From positions 32,001-96,000 of the forward strand of contig CAWCRS010000001.1 in NCBI GenBank assembly GCA_963798085.1: a DNA stretch of 64,000 nt, read 5' to 3'. This DNA is from an uncultured Gemmatimonadales bacterium (GTDB taxonomy: Bacteria; Gemmatimonadota; Gemmatimonadetes; Longimicrobiales; RSA9). Positions 28,359 to 64,000 of the stretch are shown one piece after another. The notes under the pieces were generated by a model. The model was not told the DNA's origin. It saw only the letters and a program-made list of their open reading frames with translations, and made no database searches. How positions within the stretch are numbered: the stretch's first letter is position 1; every line of letters begins with the position of its first letter. The position numbers were made by a program, and so were the translations under genes.

Positions 28359-28371
28359 GTGGCGCGCGTGG

Positions 28372-40660: not shown

Positions 40661-40849
40661 AGGACCTCCTGGCCGTCCGCGTGTGAGATCGCGCGTGCCA
40701 CAAGCAATGCATAGCATACTGCCAGCCGGCCGGACACGATACGCCGGCATGCAGCGAGCGCAACGATTTGTGTGGCGCCTGGTCCGCCGGCACGATCTGT
40801 TCCGCTGCGCACTCGGATTTGAACGCCACCGGGGGAGGCCGGGAATGAT

Positions 40850-41820: not shown

Positions 41821-41829
41821 GCCGGCGAC

Positions 41830-42611
41830 ATCCCGGGAGCTTCGTTGCCGCCTGCCTGGTTGTCGCCTGCTCAGGGGCGGAGCCGACCACGCCGATCCAG
41901 AAGATCGATCCCGTACCTGCGTCCATTTCGCTGTCGGAAACAAGCCTCAGCTTCGCCTGGCTCGGAGAAGGGAGGGAGATCGCCGCCACGGTCAAGGATC
42001 AGGATGGCCGCGTTCTCGGCCTCGAGATCACGTGGACTTCGACGGACACGGCAGTGGCGACGGTGTCGAACAAGGGCACCGTGCTTGCCTGGAGCAATGG
42101 CGCGGCGGAGATCGTGGCTTCGACGTCGTCGCTCTCCGCTCGCATCCCGGTATCAGTGCAGCAGGCGCCGGCAGTATCCCGGGACGCGCGAGCAATGGCC
42201 GCCGTATCGGATCGCCGTGGACTGGATCAAGTGCAACTATAACTTTTCGTTAGGGACGGCGGTCATGAACTCGGGCATACCTTCGGCTTGCCGCACCCGG
42301 CCGATTTTCAGTGTGCGGGTCTCGCGGAAGTGCTGGTCATGCAGAGCCAGTGGAACACGGATCTGGCGAGCGAAGGCTTTTTCAGACGACCCGCAGGCTT
42401 CACGGGCAACAACATCGGCATCATGAAATCGTGGGATCCCGTTGCCGGCCGGCCCACGGATCCGACGCAGGGCTACGCCGCCGGAATCGGTACGACGAGC
42501 CGGCCCAACGGCAAATTCCACAGCGAGCCGGAGATCCTTCTGGACAATCCGCACTTCATCAGCGGAGCACCGTCCGTGCTTCTGCGCGGCAGAAACCGGG
42601 GAAGTCGATAA
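41830..42611 (+). pseudogene. Disrupted lipoprotein gene: Ig-like (Big_2) domain plus metzincin-type zinc protease remnant
   Basis: LVVAC lipobox; ATVKDQDG..ITWTSTD.AVATV...G.V (Big_2); HELGHTFGLPH at 42264-42296 in another frame. Confidence 0.65.
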
Positions 42612-48427: not shown

Positions 48428-48775
48428 GTGGAACACGTTCGCGTCGTAATGGCCGGCCTGCCACGCATGCTCCGGGACCTGATCCGCGTTCAGCTGGAAG
48501 CGGAGCCGGGCGTGGTCGTGGCGGCGGAAAGTGGCGTGGTAGCGGCGCTGCCCGAACTGCTGTCGGATGGTCGGGCGGATGTGCTGGTGCTGGGCGTCAC
48601 CTCGGAGCCGAGCTGGCGTGCGGTGTGTGAAACGCTGGCGCTGCGCGAGCGGTTGCGGATGCTGACCGTGGGTGAGGGCGGGCGCGTGCTGCGCGTGTAC
48701 GCGCTGCGTGCGCGTCCGGTCGAGGGATCGATCGCAAGTCTGATCACCGCGATCCGTGAAGAGAGCGGCGAGTGA
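48428..48775 (+). CDS. Stand-alone receiver-like (pseudo-REC) protein heading the eCIS operon
   Basis: VRVVMAGLPRMLRDLIR..LEAEPG.VVAAE...ADVLVLG resembles a NarL-type receiver lacking the acidic pocket. Confidence 0.55.
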   Translation: MEHVRVVMAGLPRMLRDLIRVQLEAEPGVVVAAESGVVAALPELLSDGRADVLVLGVTSEPSWRAVCETLALRERLRMLTVGEGGRVLRVYALRARPVEGSIASLITAIREESGE

Positions 48776-48827
48776 GCGGCAACCGGCGGCAGACCGGCTG
48801 CTCGCGTGTTGACGTCGAGGAGGTGCC

Positions 48828-51059
48828 ATGCCTGCAAGCCTGACGTTCCCCGGTGTTTACCTCGAAGAATTGCCCAGCGGCGTTCGCACGATCACCGGCG
48901 TGGGCACATCGCTGGCCGCGTTCCTCGGCTTTACGCCGCGCGGCCCCGTGAATCGTGCGGTGCGCGTGCAGAGCTTCGCCGATTTCGAGCGCAGCTTCGG
49001 CGGGCTCAGCACGGCCAGTCCGCTCGGGCACGCGGTGCGACAGTTCTTCCTGAACGGCGGCGCCGACGGCTATGTGGTGCGCGCCGCGGCGGGCGCACAG
49101 ACCGCGAGCGTGCAGCTGCTCGACACGGGCGGCAATCCCTCGCTCGAGGCCACGGCCTCGTCGCCGGGCGCCTGGGGCAACTTCCTCCGCCTGACAGTCG
49201 ATTACGCCACCGCATCGCCCGAGAGCACGTTCAACCTGCGCGTGACCGAGCTGGTGCTGGACGGCGGCACGCCGCGTGTGGGACGCGCGGAGAACTTCGG
49301 CGGCCTCACCATGAACAGTCTGGCCGCGAACTACGCGGTCGACGTAGTGAACGCCGCTTCACAGCTGATCCAGCTCACGCGTCTGGCGGGCGCAGCGGCC
49401 AATGCGGGCACGGCGTTCAGCGGCCCGATCGTGGCCGCTGACCTGGCCGCGCTCGACGCGGGCCACAACCGCCTGGCCGTCTTCGTCAACGGACAGGGTC
49501 CGTTCGAGGTAGCGCTGGCGCTGCCGGTCGCCGATGTCGCGGATCTCGCGAACAAGATCACGACCGGCCTGAACGCGACCGGCGATCCGCTGGCCGCGGG
49601 CGTCACCGTCTCCGCCGCGGGCAGTCGCATTCAGCTCACGTCGGGCACGACGGGTGACGACTCGACGCTTCGCGTGGGTCCCGCCAGCACCAATAATGCA
49701 TCCATCAGGCTGCACTTCGGCGTGATCAATGGCGGTCGCGAAGTCAATGCGGCGGGCGTGATCCGTCCCTCGCCCAGCGGCACGACAGGCGGCGCCGCCA
49801 TTGACACGGCCACGGTGGCGACCGGCCCGCTCGACGTCACGGTCACGCCGCGTGTGGGCGGCGCGGCCACCGACACGCTCGCGCTCACCGTTCCCCCGCA
49901 GCCGCTGACCGCGGCGCAGGTGCGCACCATTGTCGAGCAGGCCCTGCGTGCGGCCACACGCCCGGCGCTGCGCACAGCCACGGTCGCGCTGGTGGATAAC
50001 AGACTTGTCATCACTGCCGCCAATGACGATGCCACCCGCCTCGGCTTCGGCAACACGCTGGCGGCACCGCTCGGTCTGACGGGCGGCACCAGCAATGTTG
50101 CCATGTATGCGCTGGGCACCGGTCCGACAGCGGGGCAGCAGGTGCAGGGCACGTCGGGTTTCGATGGCAATCCGCCTTCGCCTGCCGACCTGATCGGCAG
50201 CCGCGCCGCACGCACCGGCCTCTACGCGCTCGAGGGCGTCGACCTCTTCAACATCATGCTGGTGCCCGGCGAAACCTCGAACGCAGTGTTATCCGAGGCG
50301 CTGGCCTACTGCACCGAGCGCCGCGCCATGCTCATTGTCGATCCGCCGCAGAATGCGCAGTCGGTGGATGATGCGACGACGTGGCTCGACTCGATCGGCG
50401 CCCTGCGCAGCCGCAACGCGGCCGCCTACTTCCCGTGGGTCTCGCTGGAGGATCCGGTGCGCGGCTTCCGTCCCACCGGCTTCCCGCCCTCGGGCACCGT
50501 GGCCGGCGTCTGGGCGCGCACGGATACCGAGCGCGGCGTGTGGAAGGCACCCGCCGGCACCGACGCCAGCCTGCGCGGCACCATCGGCCTCGCCAGCACG
50601 CTGACCGACGCGCAGAACGGCGTGCTCAATCCGCTCGGCCTCAATGTGCTGCGCACACTGCCCGTGTTCGGCTCCGTGGTCTGGGGCGCGCGCACACTGC
50701 GCGGCGCCGACCAGATGGCCGACGAATACAAGTACATCCCGGTGCGCCGCCTCGCGCTGTTCCTCGAGGAAAGTCTGTTCCGCGGCCTGCAGTGGGTGGT
50801 GTTCGAGCCCAATGATGAGCCGCTCTGGGCGCAGATCCGTCTCAATGTCGGCGCCTTCATGCAGACGCTGTTCCGCCAGGGCGCATTCGCCGGCACATCG
50901 CCACGCGACGCCTATTTCGTGAAGTGCGACAGCGAGACGACGACGCAGAACGACGTGAATCTCGGTGTGGTGAATGTGGTCGTCGGATTCGCGCCGCTCA
51001 AGCCGGCGGAATTCGTCGTTATCAAGATCCAGCAGATGGCCGGCCAGGTGCAGACCTGA
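48828..51059 (+). CDS. Contractile tail sheath protein (Afp2/3/4-like)
   Basis: FPGVYLEE, GVWKAPAG, VWGARTL, YIPVRR, WVVFEPN, VGFAPLKPAEFV. Confidence 0.96.
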   Translation: MPASLTFPGVYLEELPSGVRTITGVGTSLAAFLGFTPRGPVNRAVRVQSFADFERSFGGLSTASPLGHAVRQFFLNGGADGYVVRAAAGAQTASVQLLDTGGNPSLEATASSPGAWGNFLRLTVDYATASPESTFNLRVTELVLDGGTPRVGRAENFGGLTMNSLAANYAVDVVNAASQLIQLTRLAGAAANAGTAFSGPIVAADLAALDAGHNRLAVFVNGQGPFEVALALPVADVADLANKITTGLNATGDPLAAGVTVSAAGSRIQLTSGTTGDDSTLRVGPASTNNASIRLHFGVINGGREVNAAGVIRPSPSGTTGGAAIDTATVATGPLDVTVTPRVGGAATDTLALTVPPQPLTAAQVRTIVEQALRAATRPALRTATVALVDNRLVITAANDDATRLGFGNTLAAPLGLTGGTSNVAMYALGTGPTAGQQVQGTSGFDGNPPSPADLIGSRAARTGLYALEGVDLFNIMLVPGETSNAVLSEALAYCTERRAMLIVDPPQNAQSVDDATTWLDSIGALRSRNAAAYFPWVSLEDPVRGFRPTGFPPSGTVAGVWARTDTERGVWKAPAGTDASLRGTIGLASTLTDAQNGVLNPLGLNVLRTLPVFGSVVWGARTLRGADQMADEYKYIPVRRLALFLEESLFRGLQWVVFEPNDEPLWAQIRLNVGAFMQTLFRQGAFAGTSPRDAYFVKCDSETTTQNDVNLGVVNVVVGFAPLKPAEFVVIKIQQMAGQVQT

Positions 51060-51098
51060 GTCGGGACTGTCGGCAAGTAATCTCGTCGGAGGCCGGTC

Positions 51099-51626
51099 AT
51101 GGCACAGTTCACGGTCAATGCCACGCGCTTCGATCCCTACAAGAACTTCAAGTTCCGCGTGAAGTGGGATGGTCGATACGTCGCGGGCGTGAGCAAGGTC
51201 GGTTCGCTCAAGCGCACCACGGAAGTGGTGAAGCACCGCGAGGGCGGCGATCCCAGCTCGAGCCGGAAATCCCCCGGTCGCACGGAATTCGATGCCATCA
51301 CGCTGGAGCGCGGCGTGACACACGACACCGAGTTCGAGAAATGGGCCAACAAGGTGTGGAACTTTGGCTCGGGCCTGGGCGCGGAGACGTCGCTGCGTGA
51401 TTTCCGCAAGGACGTGATCCTCGAGGTCTACAATGAAGCCGGTCAGCTGGTGCTGGCCTACAAGATCTTCCGCTGCTGGGTCTCCGAATTCCAGGCGCTG
51501 CCGGACCTCGACGCCAACGCCAATGCTGTCGCCATCCAGCACATCAAGCTGGAGAACGAAGGCTGGGAGCGTGACTACAATGTGGTCGAGCCGCAGGAGC
51601 CCAGCTTCACTGAACCGCTGACGTAG
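51099..51626 (+). CDS. Tail tube protein (T4 gp19/Afp1-like)
   Basis: RFDPYKNFKFRVKWDG, HREGG, PGRTEFDAITLERG, LENEGWE. Confidence 0.95.
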   Translation: MAQFTVNATRFDPYKNFKFRVKWDGRYVAGVSKVGSLKRTTEVVKHREGGDPSSSRKSPGRTEFDAITLERGVTHDTEFEKWANKVWNFGSGLGAETSLRDFRKDVILEVYNEAGQLVLAYKIFRCWVSEFQALPDLDANANAVAIQHIKLENEGWERDYNVVEPQEPSFTEPLT

Positions 51627-51628
51627 TC

Positions 51629-52420
51629 GTGGGGCGCAGTACGAGTCCGTCCGATCTGCTGCGCGTCTGGGAACGAGGCGATTCGCGCCCGCTGCCCGAG
51701 CGCGCGCTCGAGCTGCTGGCGCTCGCGCTGCCGGACGCACCGTGGGACGAGCTCGCCGCCCTGTCCTTGGCCGCGCGCGATCGCGAACTGCTGCGGCTGC
51801 GCGCGGCGCTGTTCGGCGAATCGCTCGATGCCACCGCCCGCTGTCCCGCGTGTGCGGGCACGGTCGCGTTCCGCACGACAGTTCCGGAGATGCTGCGCGC
51901 CCTCTCCGGCGACGCACCGGTTCAGCGGCTGGATCTGGAAGGCGACACGTTCCGGGTCCGGCCACCGAACGCGCTCGACCTCGTCCTCGCCGCACGCTGC
52001 GCCGATGCCGCTGCCGCCACCCGCCTGGTCATGCAACGTTGTGTTAGCACAGACACCGGTGCACCGGACGACGGCAGCATGACGGCGGGGGCAGGCGCGG
52101 ACGGAGCAGGTCCGGCGGCCCGGGATAACGGCTGGTTTGACGGATTGCCGGATGCCGCGCAGGCTGCCCTTGCCGCGGCCATGGATCGCGTCACCGAGCC
52201 CGCTTCCCTGCAGATCGCACTGGCTTGCGCGGACTGTGGCGCGCATGTGCCGGTGGAGTTCGACATTGTCCCTTTCCTCTGGCGCGAAGTCGCCGCCGAG
52301 GCGAAGCGGCTCGCGAGTCAGGTCGTGCTGCTGGCCCGGGCCTTTGCCTGGCGCGAACGCGACATCCTCGAGCTCTCCGCCGCCCGCCGCCGTCTCTACC
52401 TCGAGCTGGCAGGCGGCTGA
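51629..52420 (+). CDS. Conserved eCIS protein with two CxxC pairs (baseplate-hub/assembly-chaperone-like)
   Basis: CPAC and CADC motifs; FRVRPPN; C-terminal LARAFAWRERDIL.LS..RR..YLEL. Confidence 0.7.
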   Translation: MGRSTSPSDLLRVWERGDSRPLPERALELLALALPDAPWDELAALSLAARDRELLRLRAALFGESLDATARCPACAGTVAFRTTVPEMLRALSGDAPVQRLDLEGDTFRVRPPNALDLVLAARCADAAAATRLVMQRCVSTDTGAPDDGSMTAGAGADGAGPAARDNGWFDGLPDAAQAALAAAMDRVTEPASLQIALACADCGAHVPVEFDIVPFLWREVAAEAKRLASQVVLLARAFAWRERDILELSAARRRLYLELAGG

Positions 52421-53199
52421 TGGGCGCGCTCGATCGTCTGGTCTCGCGCACCCTGGAGAGCGCGCCCGTGGCCCGGCCCGTGCTGACACCACTGTTCGCA
52501 GCACCCGGCCCGCCGCCGCCATTGCCCGGCCTGCCCGTACCGGAGGCTCGCGGTGCCGTCCCTGCCGGTCGCGCAACCGCCGAGCCGCGGTCGAGCGATC
52601 GGCCGGCAGGCGCCCGCGCAGAGCGACTCTCGCTCGAGGAATGGCTCGACTCCCCGGCCCGGCAGGCCAGCGCATCCGACCGCTTCACGCGCGCGGTTTT
52701 GTCAGCGGGCGAGGCTGACGCGAATGTTGCGCGCCCGCGGGGTGCAGCGTGGGCGGATCCCGCAGAGAGTGCGGCTCACGTGGCGGCGGTACGCGAGACC
52801 GTGCCCACCGGGTCGGCGCCGCGTGCGCCCATCGCCGACGCCGTCACGCAGGGCGGCGATGCGGCGCAGGCCGCGCGTGGGTCGGCCGCCGAGGCGATCG
52901 ACAGGCTGGCCCGCCGCCTGGACGCGCGCGAAGCGCAGGATGGCGCACGCCCCGCTCCACGGATTGCAGGCGACGATGCCGCCTCGGCTCGCCGGCCCGC
53001 TGCCGCGAACCCGCCGGTCGTCTTCGAACAGTCCGTTAGCAGCGCTGCCGGCGCGCCTGCGGAAGCGCCGGTGGTGCGGGTGAGCATTGGCCGCGTGCTG
53101 GTGCGCGCCATCCTGCCGCCGCCTTCGCCTCGACCCGCGGCGCGACCGGGCCCGGCCGGACCCACGCTCGAGGAGTACCTGCGCGGAGGCCGGCGATGA
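52420..53199 (+). CDS. Pro/Ala-rich low-complexity eCIS protein
   Basis: Coupled to both neighbours; C-terminal VVRVSIGRVLVRA...TLEEYL. Confidence 0.65.
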   Translation: MGALDRLVSRTLESAPVARPVLTPLFAAPGPPPPLPGLPVPEARGAVPAGRATAEPRSSDRPAGARAERLSLEEWLDSPARQASASDRFTRAVLSAGEADANVARPRGAAWADPAESAAHVAAVRETVPTGSAPRAPIADAVTQGGDAAQAARGSAAEAIDRLARRLDAREAQDGARPAPRIAGDDAASARRPAAANPPVVFEQSVSSAAGAPAEAPVVRVSIGRVLVRAILPPPSPRPAARPGPAGPTLEEYLRGGRR

Positions 53200-54505
53200 G
53201 CAATGCGCTGTGCATTGCCACGGTCACGTCGACACTGCGGCGCGAACTGACGCTCGCACTGACGGCGAACGTGGCCGGTCGCGTGCCCAACACCACGGTC
53301 ACGACCCTGCGGCCGGACCGCGTGCAGAATCCGCTCGCCGATCCCACTGTCAATCTGTTCCTCTACGCGGTGACGCCGGACCCGTCGTTCCGCAACGTGG
53401 ATCTGCCCACGCGCAGCAGCAACGGCCGGCTGACGGCGGGAAACCGCGTCGCGCTCGACATGCACTACCTGCTCACGTTCCACGGCGATGATGCCACGCT
53501 CGTGCCGCAGCGGCTGCTGGCCATTACCGCGAGAACGCTGCACGCGCACCCCGTGCTGACGGCGCAGATGATCCGTGACACGGTGGCGGACGCGGCGACG
53601 TTTCCGTTCCTGGCCGGCGCCGACCTGGATCAGGCCGATGAGCCCGTGCGCATCACGCCCGCGCCGCTGACGCTCGAGGAGACATCGAAGTTCTGGGCCA
53701 TGTTCCCGCAGACGTCGGCCGCGCCATCACTGAGTTACATCGCGGCCGCCGTGCTGGTCGCTGCCGAGGCGCAGCCGGCGGCAGGACCGCCGGTACGGCT
53801 GCGCAATGTCTACGTGGTGCCGGCCGCACAGCCGTTCATCGAGCGCGTTACTGGGCCGGCCGGCATCAACGACCCGCTCGTCGCGAGCAGTACGCTGGTC
53901 ATCAGCGGACGTGCGCTGCGCGCCGATATCACACAGCTGCGCGTGGAGGCGGCCACCATCGATGTAGTGTCCAATCCAGCGGGCACGGAGATCCGCGTGC
54001 CGGTGCCCGCGACCGTACTCGCCGGACTGCGGGGCGCGCAGATCATCCAGCCGCAGCAGCTGGGCACACCGCCGGTGCCGCACCGCGGCATGGAATCCAA
54101 CGTCGCGCCGTTCCTGCTGCGGCCCGCGATCGCGCAGGACAATCCCGGCAACTTCCTGGTCTCGGCCGGCAACATCGTTGCGGGTGCGGGCAATCTGCGT
54201 ACGGCTGACATCACGTTCACCGTGACGCCCGCGGTGGGCAAGCGGCAGCGCATGCTGCTCTACCTGATCGAGCGGCTGCCGCCTGCGGATCGCGCGCCGC
54301 GCGTGTTCGCGGTCGTAGCGCCATCGCGTGACGTGCCGGCCGAACCTGAGACGCGCGCGGTGTTCACGCTCACGGCCGCGAACATCGAGGCCGGTGATTA
54401 CGTGGCCAGGCTGCAGGTGGATGGCGCCGACAGCACGTTCGTCGCCGACGCCGATCCGCAGAGCCCCACGTTCAACCAGTTCATTGCGCCCCGCGTGCAG
54501 GTCCC

Positions 54506-54509
<4 letters not shown>
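53196..54509 (+). CDS. DUF4255 / Pvc16-Afp16-like cap (tail terminator) protein
   Basis: MSNALCIATVTSTLR, VNLFLY.V, LDMHYLLT, LH.HPVL. Confidence 0.88.
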
Positions 54510-56508
<1,999 letters not shown>

Positions 56509-56512
<4 letters not shown>

Positions 56513-56808
56513 GCGCGCACGCCGCGACCCGCCGGCCACAGCATGGCTCGCCCTCTCGGCCGCCGCGGTACGAGCTGCACATCGAGGAAGTCGTACTCGA
56601 GGGCTTCGACTCGCTGCCGGAACGAGCACTGCGCACAGCAATCGAGCAGGAGCTGACTCGCCTGTTCCGCGAGCGCGGCGGGCGGGCGGGCGGGCGGGAC
56701 CTCGCAGTGGACCGCGTCGATGCGGGCGCCTTCCAGGCCACCAATGTGCGCGCCGCACCTCTGGGCGCCAGCATCGCAAACGCGGTGTTCGACGGGTTGC
56801 CACGATGA
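56509..56808 (+). CDS. Small eCIS-associated hypothetical protein
   Basis: ATGA-coupled on both sides; YELHIEEVVLEGF...AIEQELTRLF. Confidence 0.7.
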
Positions 56809-58079
56809 GTGAGCGCGCCGCCGTGCAGACTGCAACGCCCGTCCCGTCGAGTGCGGCACGCGCCGCTTCACCGGTGCGGCTGCTGCGCCGCAAGTGCGGC
56901 TGCGGCGGCGACCACGAAGGCGAGTGCGACGAGTGCAGGAAGAAGCGCATGGGCACCGTGCAGCGCTCGGCAATCGATGCCGCGTCGCTGGATCGCATTC
57001 CGCAAGAGGTCGACGAAGAGCTGGCGCGCGCCGGCACGACACTCGAGCCGGGTGTGCGCCGCTTCATGGAGCAGCGCTTCGGCCACGACTTCGGCACTGT
57101 GCGCGTGCACAGCAATGCGCGGGCCGCCGCGTCCGCTGATGCCGTGCGGGCACGGGCCTACACGGTGGGCTCTGACGTCGTGTTTGCCGCCGGCCAGTAC
57201 CAGCCGGAGACCGGTGAGGGGCGGCGCCTGCTGGCGCACGAGCTGACCCACGTCGTGCAGCAGTCGGGCAGTGCCTCGCCGGCCGCGGATTCCGCCACGG
57301 CGGAAGCCCGTGACGAAGCGGAAGCGGTGCGCGCCGAACACATGGTCGCGGCGTCGTCGCCTGCACCCGTTGCGGTTTCTTCCTCGCCCGGCAGCGCGCT
57401 GCGCCGGCAGGGTGGCGGCACGCAGGGGCAGCCTGCGCCGAAGAAGCCCAGCGCGATCGAGAAGCTTACGCACCTGACCTTCCATCTCGGTGATGCCACC
57501 TTCGAGATCGACCTGCCTTCCTCCGTCTCAGCGACCCTGCCCATTGAGCTGTCCGGCAGGACGAAGATCACGTTCGCGCTGAAAGGCACGACATCGGGCG
57601 CGTTCACCTTCACGGCCACGCTCGACGGCATTCCCCACGTGCGCATCATCGCGAAGGCCGGCGTCGAAGTGGGCGACAAGTCGAAGGCCACCGCGGGCAT
57701 CACGGTCGAAGCCACGCGCAAGGTCTGCCGCGTGAAGAACGAAGGCGAGATGCGCAAGGATCTGCAGAGTGCGGGCGACAAGCTCAAGAGCGCGATCGTC
57801 GACTTTCAGAAGCTGCCCGACGCCCTGGCGGGTGTGAGCGATGAGGTGGAGCGCGCGAAGATCATTGGTACGCGGGCGGGTGCAGTCGGCTCGGCCATTG
57901 GCGCAGTGAACAGCGCCATCGAGAAGGCGAAGGCGCCCTGCAAGGAGACGCCGGTGTTCTCGTTCGATTTCGGCGTGCAGGCGCCACTGCAGCCGGCGCA
58001 GCCGGACTTCTTCGGCCCCGGCTCCTCGGCGCCGCCCATGGGCCCATCCGTGGGCGCCACCTTCACGTGGCATTTCTAA
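56805..58079 (+). CDS. DUF4157 (eCIS core) protein with variable C-terminal domain; candidate effector
   Basis: RKCGCGG..ECDEC; MEQRFGHDFGTVRVH, ARAYTVG, LLAHELTHVVQQ; ends in GATFTWHF. Confidence 0.9.
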   Translation: MSERAAVQTATPVPSSAARAASPVRLLRRKCGCGGDHEGECDECRKKRMGTVQRSAIDAASLDRIPQEVDEELARAGTTLEPGVRRFMEQRFGHDFGTVRVHSNARAAASADAVRARAYTVGSDVVFAAGQYQPETGEGRRLLAHELTHVVQQSGSASPAADSATAEARDEAEAVRAEHMVAASSPAPVAVSSSPGSALRRQGGGTQGQPAPKKPSAIEKLTHLTFHLGDATFEIDLPSSVSATLPIELSGRTKITFALKGTTSGAFTFTATLDGIPHVRIIAKAGVEVGDKSKATAGITVEATRKVCRVKNEGEMRKDLQSAGDKLKSAIVDFQKLPDALAGVSDEVERAKIIGTRAGAVGSAIGAVNSAIEKAKAPCKETPVFSFDFGVQAPLQPAQPDFFGPGSSAPPMGPSVGATFTWHF

Positions 58080-58083
58080 CGCC

Positions 58084-59043
58084 ATGTTGAGCGCCTGCCG
58101 CCTCCGTTGCAGCGCCGTCGCGCGCACGAGCGTAATGCCGGTGCTGCGCCGCACCTCGCATGCGCCGTTGATGCTGCACGGCGCAGTACGCGCCGCTGCC
58201 GATGGCGCCGCGAACGCTGCGCCGCTGCTCGCGCCCGCAACACACGATTTCGGACGCGTACTGGTGAGCAGCCGCGGTCATGGCGGCTTCGGTGATGGCG
58301 GCGACAAGCCGGTGGTCGCGGACAAGGGCAAGGAAGGCGAGCAGGGCAAGGACGCCGGCCCGGGCTCCGCAGGAACGCCGGCACCACCCGTCACATGCGT
58401 GCCCGACAAGGCGCTCGACTTCACGGACTACACGGGCACCGCACCGTCGGGCACGGGACACGCCGGCAAGACCACGTACGACTTCAATGTCGTGAGCGGC
58501 ACGGGCGGCGATGTCATCCAGGCGAAGTTCGCTGGCGCCAGCTCGTGGCTGCGGTCCGACGTCCTCAACGGCGGCGACCGCAATGCCAACGGCTGCGCCG
58601 GTATAACAACGGATTGCGAGGCCAGCTTCACCCAGGAAGGCGACTATTACGAGCTGGATTCGCGACCCGTCCCGGGGTGCGCCGCGAGCGAGCGCTACCC
58701 GGCCGGCACGAAGGCGATGAAGAAGAGCGAGTGCCGCTCCAAAGTCGAACCCGTGTGCATGACAACGAAGAAGAAAGAGGCCGCGCGCGTGCTGCACCAT
58801 GAGCAGAGGCACCTCGACCTGGGCTGCGCGCTGGCCGCCATGGGCACGGCCGCCATTGCCGCGGGCAGCAGCTCGAGTGCAGCGCTGGACCAGGTCAAGT
58901 ACACGGATGGTGTGCTGACCGCGAAATACGACAGCGAAGCGAAGAACGGTTGTGATGCCACTGCGCAGACCAAGTGGGACACCGAGATCGGCGGCGGACT
59001 GCCGTCGTACAAACTCATGACGAGGCCGAAGAAGAAGAAATGA
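58084..59043 (+). CDS. Cys-rich DUF922-like putative zinc metallopeptidase; candidate effector; start uncertain
   Basis: LDFTDYTG.AP, SSW, VLHHEQRHLD, YDSE.KNG....Q.KW; N-terminal HDFGRV. Confidence 0.7.
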   Translation: MLSACRLRCSAVARTSVMPVLRRTSHAPLMLHGAVRAAADGAANAAPLLAPATHDFGRVLVSSRGHGGFGDGGDKPVVADKGKEGEQGKDAGPGSAGTPAPPVTCVPDKALDFTDYTGTAPSGTGHAGKTTYDFNVVSGTGGDVIQAKFAGASSWLRSDVLNGGDRNANGCAGITTDCEASFTQEGDYYELDSRPVPGCAASERYPAGTKAMKKSECRSKVEPVCMTTKKKEAARVLHHEQRHLDLGCALAAMGTAAIAAGSSSSAALDQVKYTDGVLTAKYDSEAKNGCDATAQTKWDTEIGGGLPSYKLMTRPKKKK

Positions 59044-59699
59044 GCACGTTCCCCGGTTCACCGCGTGTGCTCAAGGCGGGCCTCGTGCTGCTGGATCCGG
59101 ACACGGCCGCGGTGCAGCGCGTCATTGTGCTGCAGTACAACCCGGACTCGCTGTCGCGCACACTGCAGATCCAGTCGGTGGGCGGCACCGAGGCGGAGCG
59201 CTCCGATGTCGTGCGGCTCAAGGCGCCGCCCATCGAGACGTTCAAGCTGGATGCCGAGCTGGATGCGACCGACCAGCTCGAGCATCCCGACCAGAATCCG
59301 AACGCGGTGGAGGTCGGCATCCTGCCCGAGCTGGCCGCGCTGGAAACACTGCTCTATCCCACGAGCAGCCGGCTGCAGACGGTCGATGCGCTGGCGAGGT
59401 CCGGCACGCTCGAGATCACGCCGCAGGAGGCGCCGCTGGCGCTGCTGGTGTGGAGCCGCGAGCGCGTGGTGCCGGTGCGCGTCACGGACTTCAGTGTGAC
59501 CGAGGAAGCCTTCGATCCCTCGCTCAATCCGCTGCGCGCCAGGGTCAGCCTCGGATTCCGCGCGCTGAGCATTGCCGACCTGCCTTCCGGCCACCGCGGC
59601 GCCACGCTGTTCCTGAGTTATCTGCAGCGCAAGGAACGGCTGGCGCAGCGCAGTCCCTCTCGCCCGCTCGGCTCGCTGGGCGTGGAATCGATCTCGTGA
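59040..59699 (+). CDS. CIS tube-initiator-like protein (Afp7 N-terminal equivalent)
   Basis: LQYNPDSLSRTL, ELDATDQLE, LVWS..RVVPVRVT.FSVTEEAFDP.LNP. Confidence 0.8.
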   Translation: MSTFPGSPRVLKAGLVLLDPDTAAVQRVIVLQYNPDSLSRTLQIQSVGGTEAERSDVVRLKAPPIETFKLDAELDATDQLEHPDQNPNAVEVGILPELAALETLLYPTSSRLQTVDALARSGTLEITPQEAPLALLVWSRERVVPVRVTDFSVTEEAFDPSLNPLRARVSLGFRALSIADLPSGHRGATLFLSYLQRKERLAQRSPSRPLGSLGVESIS

Positions 59700-59708
59700 G
59701 GAGGCCGG

Positions 59709-60020
59709 ATGCTGCCGCCTGACAGCCGCTACAGCACGATTTCCACCGCCACGTACACCCGCGCGGATGGCGTGACAATCGTGTACCTGCGACGCCGGTT
59801 GTTGCCCGATCCGGAACGGCTCGCGCAGATCGCCCTGCACGCCGTGGTCGCGGGCGAGCGCCCCGACCTGGTCGCCGCACGTTATTACGCTAACCCGGCC
59901 TTATGGTGGCGCATCGCCAATGCCAATGGCGTGCACGATCCCGCCGAGCTGACCGATACGCCCGGAAGGCGGCTGCGCATCACGCTGCCCGAAGGCATTC
60001 CGGGGCCGGCCCATGCGTGA
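59709..60020 (+). CDS. LysM / tail-X-like protein
   Basis: SRY, YLRRR, GERPDLVAARYY....WWRIANAN. Confidence 0.85.
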   Translation: MLPPDSRYSTISTATYTRADGVTIVYLRRRLLPDPERLAQIALHAVVAGERPDLVAARYYANPALWWRIANANGVHDPAELTDTPGRRLRITLPEGIPGPAHA

Positions 60021-61141
60021 CGCCATGCTGCTCACGCTCATGGTCGGGCCCGGTGTGCCCGTGCCTGTGCCCCGCTCGGTGCTGGACGCGCTGACTTCCG
60101 TCCGCGTCATCACCGACTCGGGCGAAACCATGAGCGGCTTCGAGCTGACCTTCACCATGGACGCGCGCTCCCCGCTGCAGACGCTGTTTCTGCTCGCAGG
60201 CGGATCGCTGCCGCCCATCTTCCGCGTCGTGCTGGTAGCCACGGTCAATGGTATTGCCGAAGTGCTGATCGATGGCGTGATGACCAGCCAGCGCACGGCG
60301 CAGGCCGATGATGGCAAGGTCACGCTCACCGTGACGGGCAAGGACCTGCTCGCCGTGCTCGACTACCTGCCGCCCCTGCCCATTCCCTGGCCCGCCATGC
60401 CCGCGGAAGTGCGTGTGCTCGCCATTCTCGCGAAGTATGCGGTGTTAGGCGTTGTGCCGCTGGTCATTCCCAGCATCATGGTCAATGTGCCCATACCCAC
60501 GGACCGCATACCGCGGCAGCAGGGCACGGATCTCGAGTACGTAAAGGCGCTCGCGGATGAAGTGGGCTACGTCTTCTACCTGAAGCCGGGGCCGGTGCCG
60601 GGCATGAGCGTGGCCTACTGGGGACCCGAGATCAAGGTGGGCGCGCCGCAGTCCGCGCTGACGCTCGATGTCGAGAACAACCGCAACGCCATTTCCATTT
60701 CGTTCAGCTTCAATGCGGAAGCCGCCGAGCTGCCCATTGTCTGGATCCAGGAGCCCATCTCCGAAGGTGCCCATCGGTATTCCCATACCCGACATCACGC
60801 CGCTGAATCCGCCGCTCGCCGCGATTCCGCCGATCCCGAAGAAGTTTCCGGCCATCGATGAGACGGCGAAGTACTCGCCCGTGCGCGCACTGCTCGTGGG
60901 CCTGGCCAGGGCTGCACAGCGCGCCAATGTCACCACCGGCGATGGTTCCCTCGATGTGCTGCGCTACGGCAGGCTGCTGCGGGCGAGGGAGCTGGTGGGC
61001 GTGCGCGGCGCCGGGACCGCGTTCGATGGACTGTACTACGTCTCGCGCGTCACGCACGAGATCGGCCGCGGCGCGTACACGCAGAGCTTCACACTGAAGC
61101 GCAACGGCCTCGTCTCCAATGTTCCGCAGGTACCGGTATGA
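60013..61141 (+). CDS. gpD/gp27-like baseplate hub (VgrG N-terminal half); 1-nt insertion at about 60761
   Basis: SGFELTF, LTVTGKDL, QQGTDLEY in frame 1. Removing one base joins PISKVPIGIPIPDITPLNPPL...LDVLRYG.LLRA..LVGVRGAG..FDGLYYV..VTH. Confidence 0.85.
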
Positions 61142-61653
61142 GCATTCCGCAGCGCTTCTATGGCAAGTATCGCGGCACGGTGATCAACAATATCGATCCC
61201 ATGCAGCTGGGCCGCGTGCAGGTAATGGTGCCTGATGTGTCGCAGGTGGTGCCCACCAGCTGGGCGATGCCGTGCATGCCGTTCACGGGCAAGCAGATGG
61301 GCATGTGGGTGCTGCCGCAGATCGGCGCCGGTGTGTGGGTCGAGTTCGAGCAGGGCGATCCCGACTATCCCATCTGGGCCGGCTGCTGGTGGGGCTCCGC
61401 CGCGGAGCCGCCCGCACTCGCGCTGGCCGCGCCACCCGCCGTTCCTAACTTCGTCATACAGACGCAGGCGCAGAACACGCTGATGATCAGCGATGTGCCC
61501 GGCCCCACCGGCGGCATCCTGCTGAAGACCACGACCGGTGCCATGATTTCCGTGAATGACATCGGCATCACGATCTCGAACGGCAAGGGCGCGACCATCA
61601 TTCTGGCCGGCCCGACGGTGACGATCAACCAGGGCGCACTGGCGGTGACCTGA
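61138..61653 (+). CDS. Baseplate assembly protein V / gp5-like spike (VgrG C-terminal half)
   Basis: FYGKYRGTV..NIDP..LGRV, WAMPC.P, P.IGAGVWVEFEQGD...PIW; short beta-helix tail. Confidence 0.92.
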   Translation: MSIPQRFYGKYRGTVINNIDPMQLGRVQVMVPDVSQVVPTSWAMPCMPFTGKQMGMWVLPQIGAGVWVEFEQGDPDYPIWAGCWWGSAAEPPALALAAPPAVPNFVIQTQAQNTLMISDVPGPTGGILLKTTTGAMISVNDIGITISNGKGATIILAGPTVTINQGALAVT

Positions 61654-61988
61654 TGCCCGGACCCCTCGCCCATCTCGGCATGGTGGCCATCTGCCCGCAC
61701 GGCGGCCAGCTCAGTGAGATCACAACCAACGCGCGGGTCCTGGTGAGCGGCCAGCCTGTCGTGACCGTGGCGGATCAGTACCCGATCGCGGGCTGCACTT
61801 TCACGCTGCCCGGGCCCAAGCCATCGCCCTGCATCCGCGCGCAATGGCTGACGCCCGCGCTGCGCGTCCTGGTCAATGGACAGCCGCCCATTCTCCAGAC
61901 CAGCAGCGGGCTCTGCCTGTCGCCGGAGCAGGCGCCGCAGGGGCCGCCCACGATCATTACCACGCAACCGCGTGTGATCGGCACATGA
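61653..61988 (+). CDS. PAAR-like spike tip protein
   Basis: ICPHGG, GC.F, PC, RVLVNGQP, GLC. Confidence 0.8.
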   Translation: MPGPLAHLGMVAICPHGGQLSEITTNARVLVSGQPVVTVADQYPIAGCTFTLPGPKPSPCIRAQWLTPALRVLVNGQPPILQTSSGLCLSPEQAPQGPPTIITTQPRVIGT

Positions 61989-62344
61989 ACCTCGACTTTC
62001 CGCTCGGCTTCGATGGCCGCGGCCGTAGCGCCGCGACGACGCCCGAGGAACACGTGCGCGACCTCATTGAGCAGGTGCTCTTCACTTCGCCGGGTGAGCG
62101 GGTGATGCGGCCGGACTTCGGCAGCGGACTCATGCAGCTGGTCTTCGCACCCGTGGGTGGCGAGATCGCCGCCGCTACGCAGATGCTGGTGCAGAGTTCG
62201 CTGCAGCACTGGCTGGGCGACCTGATCGATGTCGAGGCGGTCGATGCCAGCTTCGATGATGGCGTGCTCAGCGTCAGCGTGCAGTACACGCTGCGCCAGA
62301 GCGGCGAGCGGGCTGTGGCCGAATTCGCGAGGCCCGCGACATGA
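61985..62344 (+). CDS. gpW/gp25-family baseplate protein (Afp9-like)
   Basis: HVRDLIEQVLFTSPGERVMRPDFGSG. Confidence 0.93.
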   Translation: MNLDFPLGFDGRGRSAATTPEEHVRDLIEQVLFTSPGERVMRPDFGSGLMQLVFAPVGGEIAAATQMLVQSSLQHWLGDLIDVEAVDASFDDGVLSVSVQYTLRQSGERAVAEFARPAT

Positions 62345-64000
62345 CGCGCTACCGCTGCGCGGACGATGAGCGCCGCGCCCGCCTGCTCGAGCAGATCACC
62401 GGCACACCGCAGATTCCGCCGGTGCCGCCGGCCAGTGCCATCAACGGCATTGATTTCCTGGAAGTCGACGACGATCCCGCCGACCCGCTCGCCGACCGCC
62501 AGCGCACACTGCACGTCCACTTCCTGTTCGACGTCGCGCCGCTCGGCCTGACCGTCGACAACCTGCAGCTCGAGGGTGGCGAGCGCATCCGCAACGTGCA
62601 GATCGAGGCGGGCACGTTCGCGACCGCTGGCAATGTCGTGACGTTCGAGGTGGACGAGGCCGGCGACTTCTCGCCGTACACGCTGCGTCTCGTCAACTCC
62701 GCGGTGGACATCACGCCACCGCCCGGCTGCGATCCCATCCTTTCCGCAGTGACGTTCAGCTTCAAGGCTGGCTGTCCGAGCGATTTCGACTGTCGCGATG
62801 CGACGACATGCGCGCCTGTTCCGCCGCCGGCGACGGCTCCTGACATCGACTATCGCGCCCGCGACTTCAATGCCTTGCGCACGCTCATGCTGGACCGCCT
62901 GGCTGTGCTCTCGCCGGCGTGGACCGAGCGCAATCCCGCAGACCTCGGTGTGATGCTGGTCGAGGCACTCGCATACGTCGGCGATCAGCTGAGCTACCGC
63001 CAGGACGCGGTCGCCACGGAAGCGTACCTGCACACCGCGCGCAGCCGCATTTCTGTGCGCCGTCACGTCCGCCTGGTCGATTATCAGCTCCGCAATGGGT
63101 GCAACGCGCGCGCCTTCGTGCAGCTGCAGGCGAACGCCGACGGCGTGCTCGTTCCTGCCGCGACACCGCTGCTCACGGCGATCACGGGCCAGCCCGCACG
63201 CCTCGACGCGCTGCCGGCAGGGCTCGATCAGTCGGATGCGCCCGCCGTCTTCCTGACCCTGATGCCGGTAACGCTGACGCAGGCGCACGACACCATGGGC
63301 TTCTACACCTGGGGCGGGCGCGACTGCTGTCTGCGGCAGGGTGCGACCAGCGCCACGTTGCGCGGCGCTTTTCCTGGTCTGGTGCGCGGCACATTCCTTG
63401 TGTTAGCCGAAGCGAAGGGCCCGCGCACGGGCGAGGCAGAGGATGCGGATCCGACGCGTCGCTGCGTGGTGCGCCTGACGCGTGATGCACGCATCACCGT
63501 CGACCCGATCGGCGGCCGCTTCGATTCGCCGCCCACCGGCAATCCGGTCACGCTCACCGAAATCGAGTGGAGTGTCGCCGACGCGCTGCCCTTCACGCTC
63601 TGGATCAGCGGCACCGCGGATGCCGAGCACCTGGGCGTGGCCATCGACGACATCAGCGTCGCGCACGGCAACATCGTGCCCGCGGACCACGGCCGCCCGG
63701 TGACTGGCGAGCTGTTAGGCGATGTGCCCGGCGGTCTGCTGCGTGTGGGCGGGCGCACGGCATGCTGCACCGTGCTGGACGACACCCTGGTTCCACCGCG
63801 CTTCCGCCCCCGCCTTGCCGAAGCGCCGCTGACGCGCGCCATCACGCTCGACCTGAGCGTGCCGTCGCCGCCGGTCTCTGGTGAGGCCGACACGCTGCTG
63901 TCCGCGCAGGCCTTCGCGACCGCGACCGCCGATCAGGCCGAGCCTGTGATCGGGCTCGATACCGTGGAAGCCGTTCCCGAACCCTGGAGCCCGGTGTCGG
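62341..64000 (+). CDS. Baseplate J-like wedge protein (Afp11-like), truncated by the window end
   Basis: Manual translation: NGIDFLEV, DYRARDFNALR, DLGVMLVEALAYVGDQLSYRQDAVATEAYL.TAR, FYTWG..CCL..GATSATL. Absent from the ORF track because it is open to the edge. Confidence 0.92.
   Translation, partial: MTRYRCADDERRARLLEQITGTPQIPPVPPASAINGIDFLEVDDDPADPLADRQRTLHVHFLFDVAPLGLTVDNLQLEGGERIRNVQIEAGTFATAGNVVTFEVDEAGDFSPYTLRLVNSAVDITPPPGCDPILSAVTFSFKAGCPSDFDCRDATTCAPVPPPATAPDIDYRARDFNALRTLMLDRLAVLSPAWTERNPADLGVMLVEALAYVGDQLSYRQDAVATEAYLHTARSRISVRRHVRLVDYQLRNGCNARAFVQLQANADGVLVPAATPLLTAITGQPARLDALPAGLDQSDAPAVFLTLMPVTLTQAHDTMGFYTWGGRDCCLRQGATSATLRGAFPGLVRGTFLVLAEAKGPRTGEAEDADPTRRCVVRLTRDARITVDPIGGRFDSPPTGNPVTLTEIEWSVADALPFTLWISGTADAEHLGVAIDDISVAHGNIVPADHGRPVTGELLGDVPGGLLRVGGRTACCTVLDDTLVPPRFRPRLAEAPLTRAITLDLSVPSPPVSGEADTLLSAQAFATATADQAEPVIGLDTVEAVPEPWSPVS

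Follow-up and report, generated by a model that had tools for sequence, protein, structure and literature searches.

Seventeen genes, all on the + strand, fill positions 48428-64000 of the window (the whole 64,000-nt stretch of DNA that was analysed), as delimited by GC3 frame plots and translations, with the last gene cut off by the window end. Neighbouring genes overlap by 1-8 nt at 11 of the 16 junctions and are separated by gaps of 2-52 nt at the other five. Frame plots, translations and junction measurements thus bear out the 17 co-oriented, overlapping genes described in an earlier reading made from the letters and their open reading frames (the sequence-only reading). Its assignments also gained family matches in HMM searches for the sheath, gp19 tube, Pvc16_N cap, ATPase, eCIS_core, gpV, gp25 and J. 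The genes are, in order:

48428..48775, + strand: g1, ORF of 115 aa with a GC3 frame signal and a GTG start
48828..51059, + strand: g2, contractile sheath, 743 aa (PF04984, 1.2e-12; PF17482, 2.1e-9; phrog_23, 2.4e-52)
51099..51626, + strand: g3, inner tube (gp19/Hcp-like), 175 aa (PF06841, 6.8e-45; TIGR02241, 1.7e-43)
51629..52420, + strand: g4, CxxC...CxxC four-cysteine protein, 263 aa, conserved in related loci
52420..53199, + strand: g5, low-complexity protein with a conserved C-terminus, 259 aa; its ATG overlaps the g4 stop
53196..54509, + strand: g6, tail terminator/cap (Afp16/Pvc16 class, formerly DUF4255), 437 aa (Pvc16_N, 8e-40)
54506..56512, + strand: g7, AAA+ ATPase (Afp15/Cis15 class), 668 aa (AAA, 7e-27; WHD, 2.2e-15)
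56509..56808, + strand: g8, small ORF, 99 aa, with ATGA overlaps at both ends
56805..58079, + strand: g9, cargo/effector candidate, 424 aa (eCIS_core, PF13699, 4.6e-33)
58084..59043, + strand: g10, second cargo-like ORF, 319 aa, with a low-complexity N-terminus and a C-terminal domain with HEQRH
59040..59699, + strand: g11, tube-initiator-like (tube half of Afp7/Cis7), 219 aa (CIS_tube, 5.8e-6)
59709..60020, + strand: g12, small baseplate protein, P2 gpX/LysM-like, 103 aa (phrog_7145, baseplate wedge, 1.2e-7)
60013..61141, + strand: g13, baseplate hub (gp27/gpD-like half of VgrG), by family profile (VgrG 9rce_F, 1.6e-6)
61138..61653, + strand: g14, spike (gp5/gpV OB-fold half of VgrG), 171 aa (Phage_base_V, 3.3e-23; TIGR01646, 1.1e-8)
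61653..61988, + strand: g15, PAAR-like spike tip, 111 aa; position conserved in 76 of 80 loci
61985..62344, + strand: g16, gp25-like baseplate wedge, 119 aa (GPW_gp25, 2.7e-16; phrog_43, 1.2e-12)
62341..64000, + strand: g17, baseplate J/Afp11-like, first 553 aa, running off the window (TIGR02243, 1.9e-31)

This gene order is shared with as many as 80 loci, which come from about 14 phyla. The recurrent arrangement runs from sheath, tube, CxxC protein, low-complexity protein, cap, AAA and a small ORF to a variable slot, after which come tube initiator, X, hub, spike, PAAR, gp25 and J. Across the locus, PHROGs matches fell into the tail and baseplate categories plus the ATPase, and nothing else.

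Sheath, tube and baseplate genes

The sheath protein had its best PDB matches in 8bky (7.1e-82), 9ezm (2.2e-81) and 8bl4 (6e-79), with Pvc2 at 1.6e-46 and Afp3 at 3.3e-42, and full-length sheaths of about 750-780 aa are common among its relatives. The inner tube matched 7b5h_AN (2e-15) and 7adz_1a (1.4e-14), the latter from an entry that, like 7aeb, we take to be AlgoCIS of Algoriphagus machipongonensis. No paralogue of sheath or tube occurs anywhere in the window, in agreement with the one sheath and one main tube of the sequence-only reading. In the cap protein, which has homologues in 31 of the 80 loci, Pvc16_N spans residues 9-201; a direct sequence search of the PDB gave no match. The ATPase carries a Walker A motif (GPSGTGKT) at residue 463 and a Walker B motif (VLLFDE) at residue 517; its PDB matches are of the CDC48/p97 type, with E down to 1.4e-35, and homologues keep its position in 48 of the 80 loci.

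The baseplate genes are the most widely shared part of the locus, with homologues of the gp25-like wedge in 80/80 loci, of the spike in 78/80 and of the tube initiator and g12 in 75/80 each. The initiator falls just short of the CIS_tube cut-off (26.6 bits against 27), and its family profile weakly matches 9rce_H (E 0.0045). For g12, the LysM assignment made earlier gains weak support: direct searches gave no Pfam match, and the family profile reaches LysM-bearing CIS baseplate proteins weakly (E 0.004-0.3), matching the LysM regions of 7b5h_AK (0.0038) and 9gtp_P (0.011); Phage_tail_X was matched by 7 of 40 aligned relatives. The PAAR-like protein has matches below the family cut-offs (PAAR_motif, 0.0075; DUF4280, 0.0049). 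The J protein has 124 relatives in genome_contigs, with a best identity of 49%, and full-length relatives of about 820-1070 aa match Baseplate_J.

The hub gene is less regular. Its span of 1129 nt is not a multiple of 3, and the reading frame changes near 60763-60767, which gives an N-part from 60013 to about 60765 and a C-part from about 60767 to 61141, matched in 76 and 78 of the 80 loci, respectively. Direct searches returned no hub family match; the profile match to VgrG 9rce_F covers about 30 residues, and NCBIfam and PHROG matches are weak. The earlier call of a gpD hub therefore stands as hub-like by family profile and fails as one clean gene, the halves lying in different frames. Hub and spike are encoded separately, by genes that overlap by 4 nt, and relatives show the same separation. 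The sequence-only reading was right that VgrG is split in two, which is no peculiarity of the window, the split being a subtype trait in the available portion of Chen 2019.

Ahead of the sheath gene by 52 nt lies g1, whose membership of the injection system is uncertain. It had no Pfam or NCBIfam match even at E<=10, no PHROG match and no homologue in the related loci. An Atlas search placed it among unnamed small-protein clusters at 0.94-0.95, with receiver-like families at 0.77-0.79; the pseudo-receiver proposed earlier, with no Response_reg or other Pfam match at E<=10, comes down to this weak language-model lead.

Accessory genes and the cargo slot

Three further genes of the locus recur in its relatives, by sequence or by position. 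The four-cysteine protein g4 has homologues in 28 of the 80 loci, immediately 3' of the tube gene, with C72, C75, C200 and C203 invariant in 20 sequences; a profile search gave no PDB relative, and no Pfam family scored above cut-off. Its neighbour g5 had zero tblastn matches in the related loci, and the same-position ORF in the interval between CxxC protein and cap carries a C-terminal IGR(I/V)(D/E)VRA ... SL(E/D)DYL motif in 17 of 18 loci; we infer only that g5 is a candidate length-determining or tube-lumen protein. Homologues of the small ORF g8 occur in nine loci, each immediately 3' of the ATPase. The four-cysteine protein and the low-complexity protein with its C-terminal motif are lineage-specific and accompany the lineage across phyla.

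The slot between ATPase and tube initiator is variable; of 48 related loci, 28 have DUF4157 genes in it. In the window it is occupied by a DUF4157 protein and another ORF that resembles cargo, both likely toxin genes, in support of the embedded cargo of the sequence-only reading. The DUF4157 protein, g9, opens with an N-terminal leader, followed by the DUF4157 domain with its HELTH motif at residue 145; a linker then leads to a domain of about 210 aa at the C-terminus, and the similarity of g9 to the related loci is confined to residues 1 to about 200. In the accessible text of Geller 2021, DUF4157 is an eCIS marker linked to toxins, and the available part of a study of AlgoCIS (bioRxiv 10.64898/2026.05.27.728243) describes cargo with a disordered N-terminal leader, DUF4157 and a variable C-terminal domain, loaded into the tube with the assistance of an AAA+ protein. 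The C-terminal domain of g9 matched 98 other representative clusters at E<=0.001 (99 matches including the query's own protein), and an N-terminal eCIS_core was found in 46 of the 76 aligned members scanned. Its AF2 model (pLDDT 82) is a beta-meander with a helical hairpin, a fold for which no PDB or BFVD match was obtained at E<=0.001.

For g10, a search of 5.8 billion proteins returned the query alone. From residue 99 to residue 301, g10 aligns (E 8e-24) with the C-terminus of a DUF4157 protein of 545 aa, L069:4722-6359, which immediately precedes the tube initiator of that locus and keeps the HEQRH motif found at residue 239 of g10. Outside the window, the HEQRH domain was seen only as a DUF4157 fusion in a Chloroflexota locus. 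The label 'peptidase-like' given earlier comes from this one HExxH motif, with no Pfam or NCBIfam family match, and the AF2 model (pLDDT 36.6) is unusable.

Class, relatives and mode of action

Sheath, tube, cap, AAA+ ATPase, DUF4157 protein and a baseplate set co-occur here, which upholds the earlier assignment to eCIS rather than to a prophage or a type VI secretion system (T6SS). With the upstream 48 kb being ordinary chromosome, we are fairly confident that the locus is an operon on the chromosome encoding a contractile injection system (CIS) that derives from phage tails and belongs to the eCIS genomic class, lineage II. The system is of a known kind, with a widespread and already catalogued architecture. 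As read from the sequence, its gene pattern would be that of subtypes IIa/IIc, the window ending inside J, before any second J copy.

Subtype placement draws on the available portion of Chen 2019 (PMC6899500), where separate hub and spike genes are the pattern of subtypes IIa-c and the presence of afp10 (PAAR) excludes subtype IIb. Likeness to IIa/IIc, as set out there and in dbeCIS, lies in an afp8 divided between two ORFs (gp27-like and gp5-like), a PAAR-like gene (present here with sub-threshold matches), the absence of Afp6 and of a recognisable Afp14, extra conserved genes without known domain, and two afp11/J copies in the relatives of the window; the difference is the frame-broken hub gene. 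A second Baseplate_J gene was found in relatives L004, L012, L037 and L061. Downstream of J, 22 ORFs from eight related loci had baseplate and fibre-type domains only, and no head genes were found within 10 kb. A DUF6519 protein lies there in seven of the eight, with a beta-helix in four of those seven; DUF6519 is a tail-fibre baseplate-attachment domain, eBAP5, in the accessible text of PMC12923769.

Among characterised systems, the cytoplasmic CIS of Streptomyces coelicolor/venezuelae (PMC10066040; 8bky, 8bl4, 9gtp) has the closest solved sheath (7e-82) and resembles the window in having neither a typical Afp14 nor an Afp13 fibre of the conventional kind (PMC10066040); it differs in working in the cytoplasm (PMC10066040) and, in the available portion of Chen 2019, in belonging to subtype IId, with a single fused afp8 where the window has a split one. 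The T6SS-like CIS of Halogeometricum borinquense (PMC11566945; 9ezm; clade IIa) is about as close in its sheath (2.2e-81), but it is archaeal, membrane-anchored and contact-dependent (PMC11566945), and the gene downstream of its effector gives immunity, whereas g10 looks like cargo. AlgoCIS shares the cargo layout of g9, as far as the published excerpt goes, and has a tube similar to g3 (1.4e-14); its sheath match to g2 is much weaker (3.4e-35), and it has its own fibre and tape measure (Alg14). Afp of Serratia and PVC of Photorhabdus, both lineage I, have in common with the locus the sheath, tube, Afp7-9, Afp11, Afp15 ATPase and Afp16 cap, yet their sheath similarity to g2 reaches only 1e-39 to 1e-46. 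The sequence-only reading had called the locus Afp/PVC-like, a label that does not survive the split hub and spike and the one sheath. Lineage I, in which the sheath has several paralogues, Afp8 is fused and Afp12-14 occur, was rejected for a locus with one sheath, separate hub and spike and no tape-measure match.

By analogy with known systems, a baseplate would nucleate on hub and spike, tube and sheath would polymerise from the initiator and be closed by the cap, and the ATPase would thread cargo into the tube lumen via disordered N-terminal leaders; the contracting sheath would then drive spike, tube and cargo through the target membrane. Release by lysis, with targeting by a DUF6519-type fibre encoded past the window end as in the relatives, would be the most likely mode of action. 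'Extracellular' is the name of a class, and because the nearest solved sheaths belong to non-extracellular systems (cytoplasmic, membrane-anchored), we infer rather than assert the release of a particle known here from genes alone.

The same machine could instead stay with its producer, firing inside the cell or anchored to its membrane, in the manner of the cytoplasmic CIS of Streptomyces, the thylakoid CIS (tCIS) of Anabaena and the T6SS-like CIS of haloarchaea. We consider this unlikely, although the sheath is closest to 8bky and 8bl4 (7e-82 and 6e-79) and 9ezm (2e-81), codes that occur in the Streptomyces cytoplasmic CIS and archaeal T6SS papers, far ahead of Pvc2 and Afp (1.6e-46 and weaker), and the best solved relative of the tube is that of the Anabaena tCIS (7b5h, 2e-15). 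The haloarchaeal system also secretes DUF4157 proteins as effectors (PMC11566945), and several members of the eCIS genomic class proved non-extracellular in the accessible texts of PMC10066040, PMC11566945 and PMC12923769. Against retention, DUF6519 proteins, a fibre attachment class in the available part of PMC12923769, lie downstream in related loci, including three of the four from Gemmatimonadota; the window showed no candidate for a membrane anchor; and the hub and initiator family profiles, Streptomyces rows included, found no 9gtp chain at E<=0.1, so the baseplate differs in type from the one characterised in Streptomyces. A prophage tail module or R-type tailocin is very improbable. 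Every structural gene has phage tail homologues, and the window stops at 64000, inside J, but the Pvc16_N cap, AAA+ ATPase and DUF4157 occur together, and relatives are without head genes in the 10 kb downstream (22 ORFs, eight loci). The sequence-only reading had named nearby phage head or T6SS membrane genes as evidence against eCIS; in the 48 kb upstream, none of the 40 ORFs matched capsid, portal, terminase or T6SS membrane families, and no tape-measure, head, packaging, lysis or integrase genes were found. That the locus is a canonical T6SS we regard as exceedingly improbable: VgrG-like spike and hub and gp25 and PAAR-like genes are offset by a gp19-type tube, cap and baseplate J, and by the lack of family matches in the window to a TssB/C-type split sheath, TssJ/L/M, TssK/F/G and ClpV.

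The one-base frame break in the hub gene may be an assembly error or the mark of a non-functional copy. If the frameshift is true, no baseplate could form, and the locus would be in decay, which we judge fairly unlikely. Of the 76 related loci having both hub halves, 74 keep them in one frame, and in 66 loci no stop interrupts the gene; the frame also looks disrupted in at least two more genes of the window, MacB_PCD/FtsX permeases at 10.8-12.1 kb and 40.8-42.2 kb, both observations being in favour of decay. Three frame breaks per 64 kb is, however, high for a living genome. The remaining 16 genes are intact and tightly coupled translationally, and both hub halves are still strongly similar to relatives, a pattern in keeping with a recent event or with an indel introduced by sequencing or assembly. 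A comparable frame change in the hub of two related MAG loci, L023 and L041, suggests a technical origin.

Host lineage and the origin of the cargo

The host is probably a member of the Gemmatimonadota, as judged from a single marker: the four best named matches of a tricorn protease encoded in the window are from Longimicrobiales or Gemmatimonadetes (64-66% identity), a small margin over Acidobacteriota and Vicinamibacteria (62-63%). The host lineage proposed in the sequence-only reading gains narrow agreement from this protein. That reading also knew of no characterised eCIS from the lineage. The literature searched likewise yielded no characterised Gemmatimonadota contractile injection system; the lineage is nonetheless already on record, because the accessible part of Supplementary table S1 of Geller 2021 includes an eCIS operon of Gemmatimonas aurantiaca T-27, an uncharacterised catalogue entry from the phylum of the probable host, and because four Gemmatimonadota loci are among the relatives found here.

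The baseplate genes of the window group with none of these four loci. Our joint reading of the slot, plausible though tentative, is that g9 and g10 are injected effectors of undescribed kinds, that the slot is a site of cargo exchange across phyla and that the system was acquired horizontally, the transfer into the host being suggested because the system groups with no other Gemmatimonadota system retrieved.

Gemmatimonadota are abundant in soil and seldom brought into culture, so a complete locus would offer a reasonable place to begin. The locus offers a defined variable cargo slot between ATPase and tube initiator and an uncharacterised C-terminal domain family carried on DUF4157. Together with the accessory genes, the slot gives testable leads on how tube length is set and cargo chosen in lineage II.

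Gene content and conservation of the locus

The window has a G+C content of 64-72%, and 20 kb of it contain 144 open reading frames (ORFs) of ≥60 aa. Because open frames alone say little at this composition, we chose frames by third-codon-position G+C and then read the translations. This gave 17 genes on the + strand between 48428 and 64000, the number and orientation claimed in the sequence-only reading; 11 of the 16 junctions overlap by 1-8 nt, mostly as ATGA, and the remaining ones are gaps of 2-52 nt. Searches with family profiles matched the sheath, tube, cap, ATPase, DUF4157, spike, gp25 and baseplate J proteins, and left the tube initiator just under the cut-off (table). Matches to PHROGs were confined to tail and baseplate categories plus the ATPase type, and single-sequence searches of the PDB with the cap and J returned nothing. 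Locus proteins have no paralogue elsewhere in the window, so the claim of one sheath and one main (gp19-type) tube stands for the window. A promoter and terminator scan was uninformative (0 promoter-like sites; one terminator-like site, inside g9, versus 5.5 expected by chance).

A fragment of J retrieved 124 relatives from genome_contigs, the best match being 49% identical; 80 loci were kept for comparison and searched with the window proteins using tblastn.

Table. Genes of the locus, all on the + strand, with family-profile matches (E value) and related loci matched out of 80. Counts given as 'at least' are lower bounds because each locus extends ≤10 kb before J.
Gene; family match; related loci matched
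g1, upstream ORF; no family match; 0 (≤10 kb before J)
g2, sheath (48828-51059); PF04984 1.2e-12 and PF17482 2.1e-9; at least 20
g3, tube; PF06841 6.8e-45; at least 20
g4, four-cysteine protein; -; at least 28
g5, low-complexity protein (52420-53199); -; 0 (≤10 kb before J)
g6, cap; Pvc16_N (former DUF4255) 8e-40; at least 31
g7, AAA+ ATPase; AAA 7e-27; at least 48
g8, small ORF; -; at least 9
g9, DUF4157 protein; eCIS_core 4.6e-33; at least 39
g10, second cargo-like ORF; -; 1
g11, tube initiator; CIS_tube 5.8e-6, 26.6 bits (cut-off 27); 75
g12, gpX-like protein; see text; 75
g13, hub; -; N-terminal half 76, C-terminal half 78
g14, gpV spike; Phage_base_V 3.3e-23; 78
g15, PAAR-like protein; -; 76
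g16, gp25; gp25 2.7e-16; 80
g17, baseplate J (open at 64000); TIGR02243 1.9e-31; 80

Bacteroidota, Myxococcota, Actinomycetota, Chloroflexota, Acidobacteriota and other phyla include relatives with this arrangement, in which the sheath gene is followed by those for the tube, the four-cysteine and low-complexity proteins, the cap, the ATPase and the small ORF, and then by the variable slot and the baseplate genes (tube initiator, gpX-like, hub, spike, PAAR-like, gp25, J). The division of Afp7 into tube-like and gpX-like genes, already recognized from sequence, is also usual, being found in 75 of the 80 relatives. The LysM label for g12 fared less well: there was no direct Pfam match, and the label is weakly supported at the family level, where 7 of 40 relatives match Phage_tail_X and the family profile weakly matches LysM-bearing baseplate regions of contractile injection systems (CIS; 7b5h_AK, 0.0038; 9gtp_P, 0.011).

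Four cysteines of g4 (C72, C75, C200 and C203) are invariant in 20 sequences, and its family profile found no relative in the PDB. Although g5 itself has no tblastn match in the related loci, 17 of 18 loci carry an ORF at the same position, flanked by the four-cysteine and cap genes, with a C-terminal IGR(I/V)(D/E)VRA ... SL(E/D)DYL motif that spans phyla and reads IGRVLVRA ... TLEEYL in the window. The body of these proteins is of low complexity and unalignable; its variable length behind a conserved C-terminal anchor suggests, by inference only, that they set length as a ruler or reside in the tube lumen. ORF g1 is not conserved in the related loci, a weak test because only Streptomyces loci extend well upstream of the sheath gene. 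Most CIS sheaths of solved structure have 354-574 aa; that of the window has 743 aa, the extra length being in the N-terminal and middle parts. This long form is common (>100 full-length matches of 750-780 aa at ~50% identity).

Upstream, 40 ORFs (positions 1-48829) are ordinary chromosomal genes, including those for polysaccharide export, a tricorn protease, TonB-dependent receptors, ECF sigma factors, symporters, an aconitase-family protein and an RraA-like aldolase. None belongs to capsid, portal, terminase, integrase or type VI secretion (T6SS) membrane-complex families; on this side of the locus, the genes that the earlier reading had named as pointing to a prophage or T6SS are thus missing from these ORFs. 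Two phosphate-related genes also lie there:
27327-28382, - strand, PHO4 phosphate transporter (7.9e-91), overlapped by a longer ORF
28372-28983, - strand, PhoU_div protein, adjoining the transporter

Class, solved relatives and host

The locus shares with lineage II of Chen et al. 2019 (PMC6899500) a split hub and spike and extra conserved genes, and has a candidate PAAR-like gene. In that survey, lineage II is described as having no recognizable Afp6 (IIb excepted), no Afp14 and additional conserved genes without known domains; within it, PAAR is absent in IIb only, afp8 takes the form of two ORFs, one gp27-like and one gp5-like, in IIa-c, and afp11 occurs in two copies in IIa and IIc. The division of VgrG into two genes, correctly read from the sequence, is therefore a published trait of subtypes IIa-c. 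The window ends inside J, and a second copy was seen in relatives only: among 22 ORFs scanned downstream of J in eight loci, a second Baseplate_J protein is present in four (L004, L012, L037, L061). The same scan found a ~700-aa protein, in one case with a weak Mu gp48 match, and, in seven of the eight loci, a DUF6519 protein of 1000-1900 aa, four of these seven also having a beta-helix.

The closest solved structures to the sheath are 8bky (7.1e-82), 9ezm (2.2e-81) and 8bl4 (5.9e-79), with Pvc2 (1.6e-46) and Afp2/3 (~1e-39 to 1e-42) far weaker, and 7b5h (6.9e-38) and 7adz (3.4e-35) weaker still. For the tube, the Anabaena thylakoid CIS tube comes first (7b5h, 2e-15), followed by 7adz (1.4e-14), which we take to be the AlgoCIS entry; no Streptomyces tube matched among solved structures. 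Family profiles of the hub and tube initiator, which include Streptomyces rows, matched chains of 9rce only (hub to VgrG, 1.6e-6; initiator to a 'peptidoglycan-binding protein', 0.0045); none of the chains in 9gtp, the Streptomyces baseplate entry, was matched. Codes 8BKY and 8BL4 appear in the paper on a cytoplasmic Streptomyces CIS (PMC10066040), and 9EZM in that on a haloarchaeal T6SS-like CIS (PMC11566945). Since sheath, tube, hub and initiator point to different solved relatives, the system is, as judged by its protein sequences, not close to any characterized CIS.

Belonging to the eCIS genomic class does not by itself establish action from outside the cell. An extracellular mode is favoured by the DUF6519 and beta-helix proteins downstream of J in relatives, which correspond to the tail-fibre baseplate-attachment domain eBAP5, identified with DUF6519 and described as frequently having beta-helix C-termini and as paired with Tail_P2_I adaptors (PMC12923769).

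The host is probably a member of Gemmatimonadota, as had been supposed. Named matches of the tricorn protease are led by Longimicrobiales (66% and 64%) and a 'Gemmatimonadetes bacterium' (64%), followed by Acidobacteriota, Vicinamibacteria and KSB1 (62-63%) and Gemmatimonadaceae (62%); among the 120 matches listed, 6 of 11 named rows are Gemmatimonadota, the best four included. We keep to 'probable' because this is one marker with a small margin.

The baseplate has other neighbours. A FastTree phylogeny of six concatenated baseplate proteins (75 rows; L001, L032, L045, L064, L065 and L069 were left out for too little sequence) placed the window in a clade of 18 rows (SH-like support 97) that also contains Actinomycetota, Pseudomonadota and the unclassified locus L004, the row nearest to the window (60% identity). 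Four other Gemmatimonadota loci did not group with it: L031, L037 and L047 make up a separate clade in another part of the tree, and the partner of L061 is a Rhodothermales locus. With these four in two places and the window in a third, the phylum would hold several unrelated lineages of the system. Surveyed eCIS show the same incongruence with taxonomy in general (Chen 2019, PMC6899500; Geller 2021).

In literature on contractile injection that names Gemmatimonad-, we found no characterized CIS from the phylum, and the name Gemmatimonadota is absent from the main text of both large surveys (Chen 2019; Geller 2021). The earlier statement that no characterized eCIS was known from the host lineage accordingly stands for described systems, but not for catalogued ones: Supplementary table S1 of Geller 2021 lists an operon of Gemmatimonas aurantiaca T-27 (NC_012489, 4032827-4071593). 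Neither the kind of system nor its occurrence in the phylum is therefore new. New here are the member itself, its cargo pair g9/g10 and the accessory-gene observations.

The cargo slot

In 48 loci with both ATPase and tube-initiator matches, the distance between the two is either 236-386 nt (13 loci), with room for the small ORF only, or 1.6-6.3 kb (35 loci). The slot holds one to three DUF4157 genes in 28 of the 48, and seven long slots hold none. In the window it comprises:
56512-59040, + strand, slot containing g8, g9 and g10
57300-58079, + strand, C-terminal part of g9

DUF4157 is an eCIS marker tied to toxins (Geller 2021). Matches of g9 to related loci are limited to its first ~200 residues (leader plus DUF4157). 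Its C-terminal part matches 99 representative proteins at E≤0.001, the query's own protein counted, always at their C-terminus, and eCIS_core is present in 46 of 76 aligned members of this family. An AF2 model of the domain (pLDDT 82) has a long beta-meander and a helical hairpin; Foldseek found nothing significant in the PDB (best E 0.054, TM≤0.25) or BFVD (best E 0.0064, TM≤0.26), and we did not count as evidence the weak, scattered similarities to beta-barrels or to helical hairpins. The layout of g9 is that of AlgoCIS cargo, in which loading needs a disordered N-terminus but not DUF4157 and is ascribed to the AAA+ protein (bioRxiv 10.64898/2026.05.27.728243).

The second ORF, g10, matched only itself in a word-indexed search of 5.8 billion proteins and had no usable match in an Atlas search; AF2 on a two-sequence alignment gave a pLDDT of 36.6. 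Its only relative found lies in L069, a Chloroflexota (Promineifilaceae) locus, where residues 99-301 of g10 align with the C-terminal part of a DUF4157 protein of 545 aa (L069:4722-6359, E 8e-24) that directly precedes the tube initiator and shares an HEQRH-x-D motif with g10. Because the homologous region is fused to DUF4157 and adjoins the tube initiator, we interpret g10 as cargo-type, the second such protein in the slot, and not as conferring immunity; a toxin-immunity pair with g9, as in the haloarchaeal system, is less likely when the sole homologue sits fused behind DUF4157. Between g9 and g10, BLASTP found only a 10-residue HDFG-type match (7/10 identical, E 0.38), a lead only to a possible DUF4157 remnant kept in g10.

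The frame break in the hub gene

Similarity of the hub (g13) to its relatives runs in one frame until ~60765 and in the next from ~60767, over a span of 1129 nt. At this junction relatives read ...(S/T)K followed directly by (V/I)P..., the flanks of which lie in different frames in the window. Of 76 loci with both halves, 74 have them in the same frame, and 66 loci read through both without a stop; we rejected programmed frameshifting because of this continuity in 74 of 76 relatives. That leaves an assembly indel or a true pseudogene. The other 16 genes of the locus are intact and tightly coupled, which makes us lean towards an assembly artefact. The two loci with hub halves in different frames (L023:7643-8739 and L041:7696-8698) are both from metagenome-assembled genomes, which suggests that breaks of this type can be technical.

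Other apparent frame breaks lie upstream in the window, in permease genes:
10797-12137, - strand, ABC-type permease (MacB_PCD); FtsX domain out of frame with it (10886-11356, - strand)
40849-41439, + strand, partial MacB_PCD
41505-42239, + strand, partial FtsX, then a Big_2 match, in a different frame from the preceding fragment

The first looks like a second frameshift, separate from the injection locus; the fragments at 40849-42239 reflect either the decay of a gene or additional indels from assembly.
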